DNA of 64,000 nucleotides from Candidatus Hermodarchaeota archaeon (GCA_048885865.1 JBHLLF010000005.1:32001-96000), one strand, 5' to 3'; shown: positions 7,737 through 13,852, counted from the stretch's first letter. Translations and numbers: made by a program. The notes: generated from the sequence alone by a model not told the origin.

Positions 7737-9194
7737 TCAGAAGAAATAGTCTCCGTAGTTACTTTGAGAAATATTATCTCCCTGACCAACACCACGAGGA
7801 TTGTACGAATCCAAGCCCTTTGTCAATGATTCAGCTCTCTTGATATGCAACGGTTTCACGTATTCCGAGGATTCCTGGACGGCTAGGTCTCCCGCAACGC
7901 GAATCAGTCCTCCAAGCTCACGAAGTCTAAGAGTCAAAGCACTACTCGCCCCATCCAGCTTCTGTGCCATAGACTCAGCAGCTTTCAAGACCGAGATAAT
8001 CGCCTCTGTGTTTAGATGAGGAATCCTAGCATCTTCTCTCACTGTCTGAGCCATGAACCTCACGATATCTCTCGTAGTTTCCGGTGTCTTTGCCATCCAT
8101 GAGTCAAGCATAATCTCGTAGCCGTAGCCCCGTATTCGCGACCTCAGAGGTACCAATATCTTGTGCAAGTCTTCCACATTGCACGCTCCAAACAAGACAA
8201 ACCTGCAGGGCACGTCGTCCACACGGACAGCAGCTCCGGAGCTGTGAGGATTTCGTCCAGCAATTGGAAAGGTGCCATCTTGCATCGCCGTGAGCAAATG
8301 CTTTTGATACTGACCTAAGGCAGCAATCTCATCCACGTATAGAATTCCCTCGTGCGCCTCGTGAATTGCACCAGGAATCACTCTGAGATATGGTGCTTTT
8401 CCCAATGACTCTGCGCTTCCATATGGATCATGTTCAACATCACCAAGTAGCTCCACAGGACTAGCTCCGCTAGCCCTCACAAAACGGCTGGAGGCATGTG
8501 AAACCAATACATGATTTGGGGAATCTCCTGGGGGGGCCTGGGGACTAGTTGAATCGTGCACATATTGGACACTGATGGTGTCGTCCTGGGTTCTTTCATA
8601 TGTGGCAACCATAGATACTCCTTTGATTACCTCATGTTGCACAACTGTTGTTAGCGCAGGGTCATCTAACAAATCCAAGGTTCGAAAGAGTCCAGAGAAA
8701 GACGTACTGTCTGTTTCTCCAAAAGTCCAGTCACAACGTTTTATCGCATCGCACTCCATGCATACGCTCTGACTGGGCAGAGAAAGGCTTCCACATCTTG
8801 AACATCGATACCCCATCTTTACCGCTACTTCAAAAGGCGCGTTGTCTGGTCTGATGTAAATCGAGTCTAGCACAGTAGTCGGAATTCCTTCGTCCTGATT
8901 CTCGTCAATCCGCTCAATAACAACTTCCGGGCGATTAGGGCGAGAAGGATTGTGCCGCAGCGATATTTGCTCTTCAGGCTGAGGCAGGAGTGAGGCTGCA
9001 GCATTTGCTAGCATCGATTTTCCGACGCCAGGCACACCACAGAGCAAAACATGTCTCCGTTGTTTCACTGCAGAGCGCACAAGTACTACAGCCCGTTCTT
9101 GGCCTATAATCCTCTCAAAAGGGTCACTCGGCGTTGAAACTTCCTCCGTCGAGTCGATATCCTCAACTATGGCTATGTCTTCATTGAGCCTCAA
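7737..9194 (-). CDS. LonB-type AAA+ ATPase lacking the protease domain
   Basis: IIGQE, Walker A GVPGVGKS, GDVEHDPY, GAIHEAHEGILYVDE, LRSRIRGYG, LRLRELGGLIR; ORF ends with no Ser-Lys protease domain. Confidence 0.88.
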   Translation of the reverse strand: MRLNEDIAIVEDIDSTEEVSTPSDPFERIIGQERAVVLVRSAVKQRRHVLLCGVPGVGKSMLANAAASLLPQPEEQISLRHNPSRPNRPEVVIERIDENQDEGIPTTVLDSIYIRPDNAPFEVAVKMGYRCSRCGSLSLPSQSVCMECDAIKRCDWTFGETDSTSFSGLFRTLDLLDDPALTTVVQHEVIKGVSMVATYERTQDDTISVQYVHDSTSPQAPPGDSPNHVLVSHASSRFVRASGASPVELLGDVEHDPYGSAESLGKAPYLRVIPGAIHEAHEGILYVDEIAALGQYQKHLLTAMQDGTFPIAGRNPHSSGAAVRVDDVPCRFVLFGACNVEDLHKILVPLRSRIRGYGYEIMLDSWMAKTPETTRDIVRFMAQTVREDARIPHLNTEAIISVLKAAESMAQKLDGASSALTLRLRELGGLIRVAGDLAVQESSEYVKPLHIKRAESLTKGLDSYNPRGVGQGDNISQSNYGDYFF

Positions 9195-9241
9195 GTCTCT
9201 CCTGATACCGTCCTAGATGCAAATGATAACAGTGAGTATTA

Positions 9242-10525
9242 CTATTCCATCAGGTCATCGAATGTGGCTATCTGAAGACCGCGTGGGCGCTTATCGAGGT
9301 CTGCAACAGCAGCTCCAATGAGAAGTTTGACATTCTTCGTGGAAGCTGAGTCCGCAAGACGCTGGGTCACTACACCATCGAACACAATAGCATCAGCATT
9401 GTCGATGCTCTCAAGAGTCTTTGCAAGGTCTGCGACACTGCACTCTGCTACAATATTCTTTTCAGCATCAAAGACCACAGCCTTGAAGGTTTCCTTTATC
9501 TCGTCTATCTGACCCAGATACGTATCGTCTACCTCAAGTACAGGTCTACGTGGAGGCTTTTCTCTTCTCGGCTCTCGATATACCGGTCTTTCATACTCTT
9601 CGCTGGGTCGACGGTCTTCTCTTCTTGTTCTCGGTTCTCTTTTTGGTCTCTTGACGGATGTCTTCTTTCTCTCTGAGGGCTTCCTGTCGCTTACCAATGC
9701 CAATGCTTGATCAGCTGGAATCCGTGTCTGAAGAGCCTTATCAACCTCCAGCCGAGAAAGTTCTTCCACCTCTTTACCTTCCGGAGCTCTTGCTATATAG
9801 TCAATCTTGGCAACTTGCATCAGTTCTCGCAGAATCAGGTCTCCCCCTCTATCCCCGTCAAGGAATGCGATGACCTTCTTGCCACGTTTCCTTGTCAGGT
9901 CTGCAATGCTCTTTGGAATATGGGTTCCTTCCACAGCAACTGTGTTATTAATCCCATATTTCATGAGATTGAGAATATCGGCTCTTCCCTCAACAATGAT
10001 TATCTCTTTGCTTTTGGCTAGTTCTGGGCCAGCTGGGAGATTGTCAGGCCCAAACTTGGCAACGCCTCCCTTCCTTCCCTTTGTCACTGCAGTTGTAATT
10101 TCGGTAGCTCCTGGTGCAATATCCTCTTCCCATCCCTTCAGAATGCTGATTGCTCTGCTGACAACCTTCCGCCGCTTTGCGCCTCGGATATCTTCCACTT
10201 TTTCTAGGGTCACCTTAGCCGTGCAGGGTCCTACTCTGTCTACGGTTTCCAGTGACGCTGCGAGTATAGCTGTTGCTGTCTTGTTGAGAGAAACTGGAAT
10301 GACAATCTCGCCGCGACTGTGTCCGCCCTGCGACTTGATGGCAATCTGGATTCTACCAATTCTCCCTGTTCGTTGTAGCTCCCGCAGATCAAGATCCTCT
10401 CCCAAGAGGCCCTCTGTCTGTCCGAATACTGCTCCCACAACATCTGGTTTGTCTACTACACCATCGATGTCAATTTTTGCTCTTATGACGTATTTTGCAG
10501 TACTTGAATCGAAATCTGTTCCCAA
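9242..10525 (-). CDS. dnaG: Archaeal DnaG (primase-like, exosome-associated)
   Basis: GAVFGQTEGLLG, RELQRTGRIGRI, TOPRIM VEGRAD, DGDRGG; TTG start preceded by AGGAG. Confidence 0.96.
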   Translation of the reverse strand: MGTDFDSSTAKYVIRAKIDIDGVVDKPDVVGAVFGQTEGLLGEDLDLRELQRTGRIGRIQIAIKSQGGHSRGEIVIPVSLNKTATAILAASLETVDRVGPCTAKVTLEKVEDIRGAKRRKVVSRAISILKGWEEDIAPGATEITTAVTKGRKGGVAKFGPDNLPAGPELAKSKEIIIVEGRADILNLMKYGINNTVAVEGTHIPKSIADLTRKRGKKVIAFLDGDRGGDLILRELMQVAKIDYIARAPEGKEVEELSRLEVDKALQTRIPADQALALVSDRKPSERKKTSVKRPKREPRTRREDRRPSEEYERPVYREPRREKPPRRPVLEVDDTYLGQIDEIKETFKAVVFDAEKNIVAECSVADLAKTLESIDNADAIVFDGVVTQRLADSASTKNVKLLIGAAVADLDKRPRGLQIATFDDLME

Positions 10526-10529
10526 TGAT

Positions 10530-10840
10530 GGTATCTCCTATGTCATACTGCCCGGTGCTTTTGCCCCTCATAATGAGATGCACTCTTCGCGCACCATCAT
10601 GGTACAGGTACCTATCTCCAACCTCTTCATGTTCGACTAGGAATGGACCCACAGAGTCGGCTTTCTCCCATGCCCTTTTTGTGCAATGATGATTAGATGA
10701 TTCTGATGATTTTGTGATTGATAAACGTCTTATGACGCGCGCGACGGCACCTCACTTCAGGAGGTCAAGCCGTGGCTTGTGATATGATGATATGATGATC
10801 GTAAAGCACACCCGATTCCTTTAGGGTGTGACTCCTTACA
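10530..10840 (-). promoter_or_regulatory. Long structured leader or ncRNA upstream of dnaG with AUC-repeat linkers
   Basis: Several hairpins separated by two ATC-rich tracts; TATA-like TTCAAATA on minus at 10862-10869. Confidence 0.45.
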
Positions 10841-11271
10841 TGGTTGGTCTGAACTGATGCGTATTTGAAGCTGTCGTTAGCACCATCAGGTTGGCCTGTT
10901 TCTCCACAAATGCCCGAGAATCGCGCCAATTGACAACGCTAATAACCATTGATTCCAAATTCTATACGTTCAGGAGAAATGACCCATTCACGAGGGCACA
11001 CAGAGGCTTTGCCTATGAGGTGTTGCGCAAGGGATGGGTGACAGCCTGGACGATGCCTGTCGAAAACCGTTTGGACGAGTCATAACGGACTCATATGATG
11101 AAACTTAGTTTCAGATGAAATGTGGGTCACCCAGACTTCGTACATTGACAGGCCGGTCGATGCCAATATGCCCAGCACGAGACAACTCGGTGGAGCCAGA
11201 TGCATTTCTGATGCTGTGATGCTGGGAGTTAGTGGTATGGGACACAGGCATCGGCCCCCTCTGATTTGGAC

Positions 11272-11472
11272 CTAATTACCAGATGACGAATCAGGTTCTG
11301 ACCATAACTGAATGAAACCGCATTCTGGACATCGAAAGGCAGAAACCTTGGAAGCTTCTCTGCTGAAGATACCAGTTCTTTGGCCTTTCCATAAGACAGC
11401 CATCTCTCCGGGGGATCCAAGATGTCCGGATGTCATCATCCCGCCACAATTGGAACATGTCCTAGACTCCAA
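11272..11472 (-). CDS. Small Zn-ribbon protein
   Basis: CSNCGGMM..G and AFRCPECG knuckles. Confidence 0.7.
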   Translation of the reverse strand: MESRTCSNCGGMMTSGHLGSPGEMAVLWKGQRTGIFSREASKVSAFRCPECGFIQLWSEPDSSSGN

Positions 11473-11580
11473 GTAATATCACCTACTTAATCCAAGAAAC
11501 AGAATAGTCTCTTATCGAGTTCAATTTGGCGGCTCATCTTATAAGCTAGAAGCTGCGAGTCGTCAACAGTACACCAAAAC

Positions 11581-12255
11581 TCAAAACTTGAGTTCACGAC
11601 TATCTCCAGGATTCATGACTTCTACTTTCACATCAGATGCCATCTTAGAAACAAGCACTTCGAATTCCTTTGGATCTTGTTCAATTGCAGGAAATGTGTT
11701 GTAATGCATTGGGATGACAGTCTTTGGTCTGACAAGCTTTGTTGCCCATGCAGCTTCTTCTAGTCCACACGTGTAGTACGAGCCTATGGGAATGAAGAGT
11801 AATTCTATGCCATGCATCTTTCCAAGCAATTCCATATCTAGGAACACTCCTGTGTCACCAGTATGATAGACTATACCACATGGAAGATTGACAATGAATC
11901 CTGTTGGAGCACCTATCCCGCATGAATGAAACGCATGAACCAGAGTGACTCTGATGTCACCGATATCTACGCTACCACCAATGTTGAGCGTGTGCACGTT
12001 CTCAACCCCTGCACTCTGTGCCTGCAGTGCAAGCTCGTTGATTGCAACAAAGTATGCACCCGTCTTCTTGCAAATCTCAATAGCTTCTGTATAACCATGA
12101 TCCCCATGGTCATGTGTAACCATGACAATGTCTGCCTTTTCAACGTCTTCCGCCTTCAATGGTGAAGTCGGCCCACTCAACCATGGGTCTATGAAGGCAA
12201 TTCTCTCTCCGCACTCGATTTTGAAGGATGCGTGACCAAGATATGTGACTCTCAT
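11581..12255 (-). CDS. Metal-dependent hydrolase (metallo-beta-lactamase fold, UPF0173-like)
   Basis: MRVTYLGHASF, THDHGDH, YHTGDT, IPMHYNTF; start trimmed to MRVT. Confidence 0.9.
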   Translation of the reverse strand: MRVTYLGHASFKIECGERIAFIDPWLSGPTSPLKAEDVEKADIVMVTHDHGDHGYTEAIEICKKTGAYFVAINELALQAQSAGVENVHTLNIGGSVDIGDIRVTLVHAFHSCGIGAPTGFIVNLPCGIVYHTGDTGVFLDMELLGKMHGIELLFIPIGSYYTCGLEEAAWATKLVRPKTVIPMHYNTFPAIEQDPKEFEVLVSKMASDVKVEVMNPGDSRELKF

Positions 12256-12365
12256 CTCATATTTCCCCTGTTGATGATTTGCTGTAACTTGGGAAAGCAG
12301 GAGCGTCGTCACTTAAATCAGTCACTTCTGCGGGCAGGTATTTCTTTGCTATGACGCCAGGTGGC

Positions 12366-12827
12366 TTAGATGGTTGACTGCAAATTCTGTCTAAGCACAA
12401 GAAGACCAATGAGGGCAACAACCGATGGGGCTGGAAGAGGAATTACAAAAACTGCCGGAGGTCCACCCAGCAAAAGAATCGGTGCTGATACCTGCAATAT
12501 TAGAGTGAATAGGACCCCAACTATTGCCTGCCAAAAGCGTGTTCTAAGGAGAAGGAGAACTGCTAGGAATATTGCAGCCAATATCCATATGGCAGCTAAA
12601 GCCAAGAACGAATCGAATCGGGGGTCATAGACCGGCCACCTGTAATGGAATGTGCCTGAATAGAAGTTGACACAACCAAATATGAAAGTCCATCCCGAGA
12701 TTGGATATGTCAACATCAAAGGCACAGCGCCAAGCTCGATGAATGCCATTGGAGTTGCGATAGTCACTGCTATGACAAGAGAGATGAAAATCCCCTGAAC
12801 TGACGGCATTCTATCCCTGAGATTCAT
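12366..12827 (-). CDS. Hypothetical membrane protein
   Basis: About four hydrophobic segments. Confidence 0.65.
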   Translation of the reverse strand: MNLRDRMPSVQGIFISLVIAVTIATPMAFIELGAVPLMLTYPISGWTFIFGCVNFYSGTFHYRWPVYDPRFDSFLALAAIWILAAIFLAVLLLLRTRFWQAIVGVLFTLILQVSAPILLLGGPPAVFVIPLPAPSVVALIGLLVLRQNLQSTI

Positions 12828-12952
12828 TCCAACTCTTTCCTAAGATGATTATAGGAAGAATCACATATCAATGATACAGGCTGGACCAAGATGTAGGTTG
12901 AAGAAATGGACTGTATAGAACTCCTTAAGATTACAATCTACAGCCCTCGTAA

Positions 12953-13852
12953 GTGACAATGACCTCTCCTCATCCTGATTTCATTAAGGCTGGCCGAATT
13001 GCAGCAAGAGTCCTAAAGGAAATGAGCCCTCAAGTCAAGCCTGGAGTCAAGGTTTTGAGAATCTGCACCCTTACAGAGAAGAAGATACTGGAGTATGGAG
13101 GGGGCCTAGCCTTTCCCTGTAATGTTTCTCTGAATGAGGAAGCTGCACATTATACCAGTCCCCATAATGATAGCAGGGTGTTTCCAAAAAAGGGCTTGGT
13201 CAAACTGGATATTGGTGCTCATGTCAATGGTCACCTAGTGGATACAGCTGTCACTATTGATCTAGATGGGTCCTATGAGAACTTCATCGCGGCATCAAGT
13301 TCTGCACTGGACGCCGCTATAGAAGTGATTCAGCCAGGAGTCCGTGTAGGAGAGGTTGGTGCTGCAATCGAACGAGCCATCAAGAAGCATGGTTTGCGCC
13401 CCATTCATCAGCTCTCAGGTCACCAGCTCAAACAGTGGAATCTTCATGCAGGAACGACTGTTCCCAATGTTGGTACACGCAGAGGCGCGAAGATGAATCT
13501 AGGTGAAACCTTCGCAGTGGAACCTTTCGCAACTGATGGCAATGGAACAGTGAAATCGTCACCAGAATCCTACATCTTCGCGAATGTGCTGACCAACAAG
13601 AAAAAACTGGATCGACTGACAAACCAGGTTCGCACCGCCGCACGCAAGAAGTTTGGTCCACTTCCTTGGGCATCAAGATGGCTTAGTAAGTCCCGAGTCG
13701 ATGTTGCGGCAGCACTTCATACTCTTCTCAGAGCAGGTGCAATCAGAAGCTATCCTGTGCTCATTGAGGGCAAGGGTGGTATGGTGTCTCAGTTTGAACA
13801 CAGTCTATTTGTTGGAGAAAAGGGAGCCATAGTTACAACCCTGCGCGATTAA
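12953..13852 (+). CDS. map: Type 2 methionine aminopeptidase, copy 1
   Basis: AFPCNVS, AAHYT, DIGAHVNGHLVDTA, GH..LHAG, AVEPF, QFEHS. Confidence 0.93.
   Translation: MTMTSPHPDFIKAGRIAARVLKEMSPQVKPGVKVLRICTLTEKKILEYGGGLAFPCNVSLNEEAAHYTSPHNDSRVFPKKGLVKLDIGAHVNGHLVDTAVTIDLDGSYENFIAASSSALDAAIEVIQPGVRVGEVGAAIERAIKKHGLRPIHQLSGHQLKQWNLHAGTTVPNVGTRRGAKMNLGETFAVEPFATDGNGTVKSSPESYIFANVLTNKKKLDRLTNQVRTAARKKFGPLPWASRWLSKSRVDVAAALHTLLRAGAIRSYPVLIEGKGGMVSQFEHSLFVGEKGAIVTTLRD

Follow-up and report, generated by a model that had tools for sequence, protein, structure and literature searches.

A conserved AUCAY-repeat leader upstream of dnaG, probably a control element for DnaG synthesis, and a divergent H/ACA guide RNA at the same Asgard locus

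The stretch of DNA analysed here (the window) comprises 64,000 nucleotides from Candidatus Hermodarchaeota archaeon (GCA_048885865.1 JBHLLF010000005.1:32001-96000). The window contains, on the minus strand at 9242-10525, the gene dnaG, which encodes a protein of 427 aa with a Toprim domain identified by Pfam matches and which heads the gene row dnaG, Lon-like AAA+ and pelota; 80 public records encode an archaeal DnaG at 40-90% identity to its product, and the closest of them are labelled Thorarchaeota. Upstream of dnaG is a non-coding gap of 746 nt, whose G+C content of 0.47-0.52 equals the level of coding sequence. On the far side of the gap, also on the minus strand, are a 66-aa zinc-ribbon ORF (CxxC...CPEC, 11272-11472) and, upstream of that ORF, an MBL-fold gene (11581-12312). 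The order MBL gene, about 750 nt of non-coding DNA, dnaG was found in 24/24 family genomes in a first sample examined by DNA search. A coding gene in the gap, including one in which the TGA at 11082-11080 would be read as selenocysteine, was considered and ruled out, since no ORF in the gap is conserved among the family relatives. A tblastn search detected the zinc-ribbon ORF, whose place is between the MBL gene and the H/ACA gene's 3' end (see below), only in the window and at a single relative's locus, present in two copies (L006, L038); among the remaining relatives checked, the MBL gene stops 10-30 nt from the H/ACA RNA.

Alignments of the gap reveal two halves of differing conservation, of which the dnaG-proximal half is the leader of dnaG and the other half is a separate gene. 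A single 750-nt leader or large non-coding RNA on the dnaG strand was ruled out by plus-strand folding with 56 sequences. Specifically, a fold of 20 sequences favoured the dnaG strand, whereas 56 non-identical sequences gave -62.2 kcal/mol for the plus strand vs -19.2 kcal/mol for the minus strand. The original prediction had placed a leader of about 310 nt before dnaG; the leader is put here at about 313 nt and the non-coding gap at 746 nt, of which the part past the TATA box belongs to the gene on the opposite strand.

The separate gene occupies positions 10968-11260 on the plus strand and is read away from dnaG. Its promoter consists of TTGACAA at 10930-10936 and CTAATAAC at 10939-10946, followed 21 nt on by GTTCAGG at 10968, and its RNA ends at about 11260, ahead of a T-rich stretch. 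The segment 10926-11259 is the best-conserved DNA of the locus, with 67-81% identity in all genera, and the block is present in 78/86 family genomes and 16/16 genera, at one locus per genome in nearly all of them. The plus-strand structure contains 96.6% standard pairs, with compensatory change at 46/64 pairs; this pairing is matched by 0/500 shuffles, and slid controls reach 33-46%. Four studies (mangrove, salt marsh, wetland and sediment) contribute RNA-library contigs on 10983-11256, from four runs in all, and the contigs of two of these studies begin at 10983 or 10984, a weak hint of an RNA end. RNase P RNA was ruled out as the identity of the conserved block because it is found elsewhere in relatives and in this genome, and SRP RNA was ruled out because it is found elsewhere in relatives; a search for SRP RNA in this 87%-complete assembly did not find it.

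The copy of this RNA in the window has no match in Rfam. A covariance model built from its two 3' domains (R1) gives full-length matches in 49/151 genomes of the phylum. Several of the homologues found with R1 match the full model of RF00064 (HgcG/Pab40) at 23.8-43.2 bits (E = 1.6e-8 to 0.014), and two family members match RF00064 directly, at 25 and 23 bits, scores that lie below the RF00064 gathering score of 77 bits, which is reached by neither the window copy nor the relatives tested. ACA trinucleotides are positioned at 11041-11043, 11142-11144 and 11244-11246, each 3' of a covarying stem and each invariant or nearly so. For archaeal H/ACA RNAs, published criteria (PMC4652768) place the ACA 14-16 nt from the pair that closes the pocket, set the lower stem at 7-9 bp, and call for a K-turn or K-loop 8-11 bp above the pocket in the upper stem. 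In hairpin 2, as read by hand from the alignment, there is a pocket of 8+8 nt, with the ACA 13-15 nt from the pocket-closing pair, depending on the pair chosen; the lower stem, ACGAG/UUCGU, has 5 bp only, with an extra basal helix past an internal loop. The K-turn of hairpin 2 comprises a C stem GAAAC/GUUUC and a 3-nt bulge AGA, followed by U.U, A.G and G.A, and its GA stem measures about 9-11 bp.

In view of the RF00064 matches of relatives, the ACA boxes and the K-turn of hairpin 2, we file the RNA as an H/ACA guide RNA of the HgcG/Pab40 kind; judged from its sequence and covariation, the RNA at 10968-11260 (plus strand) is a divergent, three-hairpin member of that kind. Like HgcG/Pab40, it has several hairpins, each followed by an ACA, a pseudouridylation-pocket layout and a K-turn, and its relatives match the full model. 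Unlike Pab40 of P. abyssi, which has two motifs (PMC4652768), the window RNA has three hairpins and extra basal helices. The identification of an H/ACA RNA that Rfam misses in Thorarchaeota fills an annotation gap of Asgard genomes. Hairpin 1 is absent or replaced by unrelated sequence in L067-L070 (genus g28) and in L076 and L077 (genus g4), in all of which hairpins 2 and 3 are intact. The position of the RNA relative to dnaG also varies. In L094 (f8) and L103 (f15), it lies between the MBL gene and dnaG and is co-directional with dnaG, thus inverted relative to Thorarchaeota; in L153, a Methanobacteriota record, it lies upstream of dnaG in the same inverted, co-directional orientation; and in L101 (f22), it is found downstream of dnaG, in convergent orientation. 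Among the non-Thor loci, R1 matches within 1.2 kb of dnaG in 1/64 only (L153), indicating that the linkage between the H/ACA RNA and dnaG is patchy across archaea.

The other half of the gap opens, on the minus strand, with the conserved sequence TAACGACAnC-TTCAAATA. In the window, a BRE-like element, TAACGACA, at 10879-10872 is followed, after 2 nt, by the TATA-like box TTCAAATA at 10869-10862. The BRE/TATA pair lies at the same position in the family relatives fetched, with about 7 exceptions; an alignment of 20 sequences has GACA and TTCAAA as invariant columns; and the box is similar to the boxes that precede the tRNA and RNase P RNA genes of the same genome. The dnaG and H/ACA promoters are arranged back to back, about 70 nt apart, and have a common layout: GACA, two nucleotides, the TATA box, 21 or 22 nt, and GT. 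From this promoter spacing and a conserved YGT, the transcription start is predicted at 10839, the G of TGTAAGG, 22 nt past the TATA box. The TATA-like box, the three hairpins, both AUCA tracts and the TTG start listed in the original prediction are all found on the minus strand where it had placed them.

We observe no run of at least 5 T from the predicted start to +300 in 49/49 leaders, and in the window sequence no TATA-like box is seen in the approximately 40 nt before the Shine-Dalgarno sequence of dnaG. From these two observations together, we infer that 10879-10862 is the promoter of dnaG and that the gene has a genuine 5' UTR, about 313 nt long. In the four RNA-library runs, there is no contig on 10455-10964; contigs drop rare RNAs, and this observation is hence neutral. 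Sponge RNAs such as CsrB carry repeated motifs, and the strong promoter of its own, structured 5' end and repeats of the leader resemble those of such RNAs, as would be the case if the leader promoter produced a separate small RNA, either a sponge or a trans-acting sRNA, ending before dnaG. The same 49 leaders without an oligo-T terminator and the lack of a TATA-like box closer to dnaG, which would leave dnaG promoterless, make this reading very improbable, and the sponge RNA that had been put forward as one option becomes less likely.

Two short reading frames lie in the predicted transcript. Its start overlaps a minimal start-stop pair, AUG-UAA at 10840-10835 (minus strand), which in relatives reads GUG or UUG followed by UAA or UAG. 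A conserved RUGAAGAG word (10630-10610, minus strand) opens a short upstream frame of 3-20 codons and of variable length. Neither the start-stop pair nor the RUGAAGAG frame shows peptide conservation in relatives.

The leader has a layout common to all relatives fetched, from 16 family genera: promoter, 5' hairpin, G-free box, two hairpins, second box, Shine-Dalgarno sequence and start. The stems and the repeats are thus kept in related Asgard genomes, where the original prediction had named their loss beforehand as the outcome that would count against it. A family-wide RNAalifold prediction on a MAFFT alignment of the leader gives 0 kcal/mol for either strand, since sequence alignment fails to match such divergent hairpins; the hairpins were therefore judged by per-sequence folds and by alignment within the genus.

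The leader opens with hairpin L1 (10801-10839; GTAAGG..CACACCC/GGGTGTG..CTTTAC). In 35/35 relatives this segment folds into one hairpin, with a mean of 13.7 bp, in sequences that share only 53% identity between representative genera. Its mean folding z is -3.7, with the sense (dnaG) strand the more stable in 24 sequences vs 11, and compensatory and G-U changes occur within the genus. L1 is followed by box 1 (10778-10799), which reads ATCATCAT-ATCATCAT-ATCACA in the DNA and AUCAUCAU-AUCAUCAU-AUCACA in the RNA, is G-free and is predicted to be single-stranded. Its family form, AUCAUCA-WAUCAUCAU-AUCAC, is conserved family-wide. Hairpin L2 (ACGGC/ACCTC..GAGGT/GCCGT) extends over 10744-10776, with its paired part at 10773-10744, and consists of a base, ACGG/CCGU, whose pairs are kept, and a variable top, which is longer in other clades. 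Hairpin L3 (10725-10738; GCGUC-AUAA-GACGU) has the consensus GUC-UUAG-GAC, which is recognisable between genera, and shows a CG to UA exchange of its closing pair. Taken together, L2 and L3 have weak fold support (mean z -1.5), and in 23/35 sequences the antisense strand of this segment folds slightly better. Box 2 (10685-10724) reads UUAUCA-AUCAC-AAAAUCAUCA-GAAUCAUC-UAAUCAUCAUU, and its core, UUAUCAWUCAY..AUCAUCA, is kept family-wide. The positions and order of the boxes are fixed in the family alignments, their composition is 44% A, and their depletion of G is limited to one strand. In the sequences folded, box 1 contains 1% G and has a predicted pairing probability of 0.18 vs 0.66 for the remaining 5' part, while box 2 has a predicted pairing probability of 0.50. 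By these predictions, box 1 is unpaired and half of box 2 is paired. The distal leader (10541-10684), about 140 nt long, is conserved within the genus only.

The distal leader leads into the start region of dnaG. An in-frame UAG stop is located at 10540-10538, and a Shine-Dalgarno sequence, GGAGA, at 10538-10534, with the start codon nine bases on, at 10525-10523. The sequence AUAGGAGA preceding the start is kept in the family. The start codon is UUG in the genus of the window; in other family genera (L017-L023, L046-L081), the aligned codon is AUA, and these genera have no ATG, GTG or TTG in the interval from the in-frame TAG to the conserved GGA ACA codons. UUG/AUA is a conserved non-canonical start, and presumably a weak initiation site, as in feedback-controlled genes. 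A conserved pairing of the Shine-Dalgarno/start region with box 1 was ruled out, as it is lost between genera.

The start region also bears on the possibility of an RNA-RNA device, in which the AUCAUCA boxes would pair either with an internal anti-box, AUGAUGG (10598-10592), that otherwise masks the start, or with a trans-acting RNA bearing UGAUGA-type boxes, such as a C/D or H/ACA sRNA. Within the genus, AUGAUGG is complementary to, and can pair with, the CCAUCAU directly before the UUG, and it can pair alternatively with the upstream boxes; minimum-free-energy folds often pair the start region with leader positions 39-53, but such pairings over 300 nt are unreliable. In other genera, the start-proximal sequence changes (GUGUAUAGAAAUA) and box 1 is unchanged, so that there is no co-variation, and the start-masking pairing of AUGAUGG is not retained there. 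As for a trans-acting partner, the neighbouring H/ACA RNA contains AUAUGAUGA, which is complementary to UCAUCAUAU of box 1, but this UGAUGA sits in the K-turn, which is normally occupied by L7Ae. The UGAUGA words of the H/ACA RNA thus appear to belong to its K-turn, with no sign of an action on the leader. Furthermore, the boxes of family f5, described below, read AUCAC and not AUCAU. Taken together, we regard an RNA-RNA device as unlikely.

The repeated word itself is exceptional in this genome. About 13 AUC triplets had been noted in the boxes, and the count is exact: there are 13 ATC, of which 12 are ATCA, in 10685-10800. With 12 ATCA in 110 nt, this is the densest ATCA cluster on either strand of the 3.58-Mb assembly, which extends the earlier remark that nothing similar occurs in the window to the whole genome. 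The next-best cluster contains 9 ATCA and, judged by its sequence alone, may be the antisense of codons for acidic residues; a point against a special role of the word is that ATCATC, being antisense to Asp codons, is frequent throughout this genome. Among 49 distinct leaders, which come from related genomes and are not independent samples, the first 200 nt contain 5-12 ATCA each, for which the mean z against shuffles is 7.

The clustering of direct repeats near a promoter would also suit an array of DNA operator sites, in which the ATCATCA repeats bind a transcription factor that acts as a roadblock downstream of the promoter. However, the sites are positioned at +40 to +155, not on the BRE/TATA or the start, the hairpins between them have kept pairing through sequence change, G is depleted on one strand only, and the period of 6-8 nt mismatches the helical repeat of DNA. 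We consider the operator array, which the original prediction had offered as an alternative, to be improbable.

On the opposite strand, the repeats read UGAUGAU, which raises the question of one or more C/D box sRNA genes on the plus strand. An Rfam 15 search of the leader (10526-10870), one of the checks proposed at the outset, assigned it to no family; it returned an sR20 match on the plus strand at 10682-10726, which is weak (16.5 bits, E = 6.3), and a 13-bit pseudoknot match was obtained in 9000-13000. No Rfam match to the leader was found at E <= 1 in 12 relatives. C/D box sRNAs have a C box, RUGAUGA, and a D box, CUGA, near their ends, internal D' and C' boxes, and guides of about 12 nt. 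The plus strand here has no conserved CUGA D box, 12-nt C-to-D' spacing or terminal stem; its words vary by genus, for example AUGAUAA and GUGAUGA, and CUGUGA replaces CUGA; and no plus-strand promoter for such an sRNA was noticed in the alignments. A C/D box sRNA is accordingly scarcely credible.

The same word also forms clusters ahead of dnaG in further Asgard lineages. In the sister family f2, a stretch of about 230 nt upstream of dnaG contains 11 ATCA. Family f5 shows AUCAY clusters in 20 loci at -159 to -224 from the dnaG ATG, mostly with 4-8 words per 60 nt, whereas shuffles average 0.7 and the remainder of each locus has no more than 3; one of these loci is identical to a Heimdallarchaeota-labelled record. 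The f5 words are AUCAC rather than AUCAU, as exemplified by UAUCAC-AAUCAUCAC-UAAUCAC-UAUCAC-AUAUCAC-AAAUCAC-AAAUCAC. A Helarchaeota record has 5 AUCAY words upstream of dnaG. The AUCAY leader is not universal: in f8 and f15, genes lie directly before dnaG and there is no such leader, and in f19 and f14 there are no clear boxes.

The conservation pattern bears on the simplest account of the leader, in which it is passive, with a 5' hairpin that stabilises the mRNA and G-poor tracts that are unstructured spacers or a translation-neutral low-complexity remnant, without a specific regulator. In favour of this account, 5'-terminal hairpins stabilise mRNAs, and the distal half of the leader is poorly conserved. 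Against this account, the AUCAY word itself, and not just a low content of G, is kept between families whose DnaG proteins are only 48-56% identical, the positions and order of the boxes are fixed, and the cluster is unique in the genome. A passive leader is, in our estimate, rather improbable.

In its general kind the leader, a cis element specific to one gene, is familiar. As in multi-site leaders, a short word predicted to be unpaired is repeated several times upstream of a start; the AUCAY element is restricted to the dnaG mRNA, being the only such cluster in the genome and recurring before dnaG in other families, which fits a regulator that acts only on dnaG, as in autoregulation. We propose that the leader regulates dnaG in cis, as a 5' UTR whose single-stranded boxes would offer several sites to a trans-acting factor, the leading candidate being DnaG/exosome in feedback, a reading for and against which we judge the scales to be evenly balanced; in broader terms, the leader is probably an undescribed control element for DnaG synthesis. 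The original view of a multi-site protein-binding RNA is upheld in part, namely as regards an RNA-level feature in a long leader, given the orientation and spacing of the promoter, the retained pairing of L1, the strand-specific G-free boxes, and the lack of a terminator or second promoter; the protein bound is a candidate only.

In the proposed mechanism, transcription would start near 10839 from the archaeal BRE/TATA promoter, and the RNA would open with a stable hairpin and then expose two G-free, largely unpaired AUCA(U/C) arrays with two small hairpins between them. With no terminator, the RNA would continue into the Shine-Dalgarno sequence and the weak non-AUG start. The repeated words would most likely serve as a landing pad, with several sites, for a trans-acting RNA-binding factor, and the bound factor would set the translation or stability of the dnaG message. 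The leading candidate for this factor is the operon product DnaG itself, as an RNA-binding subunit of the exosome, acting in feedback. Because the array occurs at no other gene of the genome and reappears ahead of dnaG in distant Asgard lineages, the operon's own product would be the most economical choice.

The proposed arrangement has parallels in two groups of known leaders. Autoregulatory 5' leaders precede genes of RNA-decay enzymes, as in E. coli pnp and rne, and the 5' UTR of archaeal L7Ae uses a K-turn for feedback. Like these, the dnaG leader is a long, structured 5' UTR before the gene for an RNA-binding component of RNA decay, with its motif at its own gene only. Unlike them, it has no likeness in sequence or structure: their elements are a hairpin for RNase III or RNase E, or else a K-turn, whereas those of the dnaG leader are arrays of AUCAY predicted to be single-stranded. 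Multi-repeat protein-binding leaders include those of TRAP/trp, with 11 GAG/UAG triplets, of HutP, and of CsrA, with GGA sites. These have in common with the dnaG leader many words of 3-5 nt in unpaired RNA, a spacing of a few bases, and a position upstream of the regulated start; the dnaG leader differs in that its word is AUCAY, it belongs to another domain of life, and it has no evident terminator/antiterminator pair. To our knowledge, post-transcriptional control in archaea has been described in very few cases, and we know of no account of what sets the amount of DnaG, the exosome subunit; searches of the literature yielded no relevant report either of such a non-coding RNA in Asgard archaea or Thorarchaeota or of a dnaG leader. 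The leader combines a simple repeated word, specificity for one gene, and conservation over Asgard lineages and perhaps beyond, and it poses a testable question, namely, whether DnaG, the exosome or another factor binds the AUCAY arrays.

DnaG belongs to the exosome as an RNA-binding subunit, and its N-terminal RNA-binding domain is conserved; in Sulfolobus, it prefers A-rich RNA, poly(A), not AUCA, and it binds 3' fragments of 16S rRNA (PMC4227792). In this genome, the 16S rRNA 3' end is GGAUCACCUCC, of which the AUCAC part adjoins or precedes the anti-Shine-Dalgarno sequence. It is conceivable, if doubtful, that the AUCAY leader represents an ancient DnaG/exosome feedback site, widespread in archaea, that works by mimicry of a substrate, the 16S 3' end. 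If such mimicry occurs, free DnaG would reduce its own synthesis by binding to the leader of its message, and the level of DnaG would be coupled to the load of rRNA substrate.

In genome G004, the promoter, leader and dnaG occur twice on one contig (L011, L024), as near-identical copies 1.7 Mb apart. Both copies are broken by masked N stretches and represent either a real duplication or an assembly artefact; the second copy, L024, is a near-duplicate with masked N and as such is uninformative.

Beyond the families with clear clusters, weaker runs of 3-5 WUCAY words precede dnaG in Methanothrix, Methanolobus, Methanoperedens, one Thermoplasmatota record and one Micrarchaeota record. Across 64 non-Thor records, at least 3 words per 60 nt are found in 11/64 on the sense strand vs 0/64 on the antisense strand of the same stretch, a statistic that is not clean, since 3 of those 11 best windows extend into the dnaG coding start and the genomes are related. 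Records L165, L170 and L189 (Methanobacteriota, Methanoperedens and Methanolobus records) have in common the pattern AAUCAUCY..GAAAAG..UUCAUAAYAUCAY at about -200 to -380 from dnaG, and this methanogen-lineage pattern may be a reduced version of the same element.
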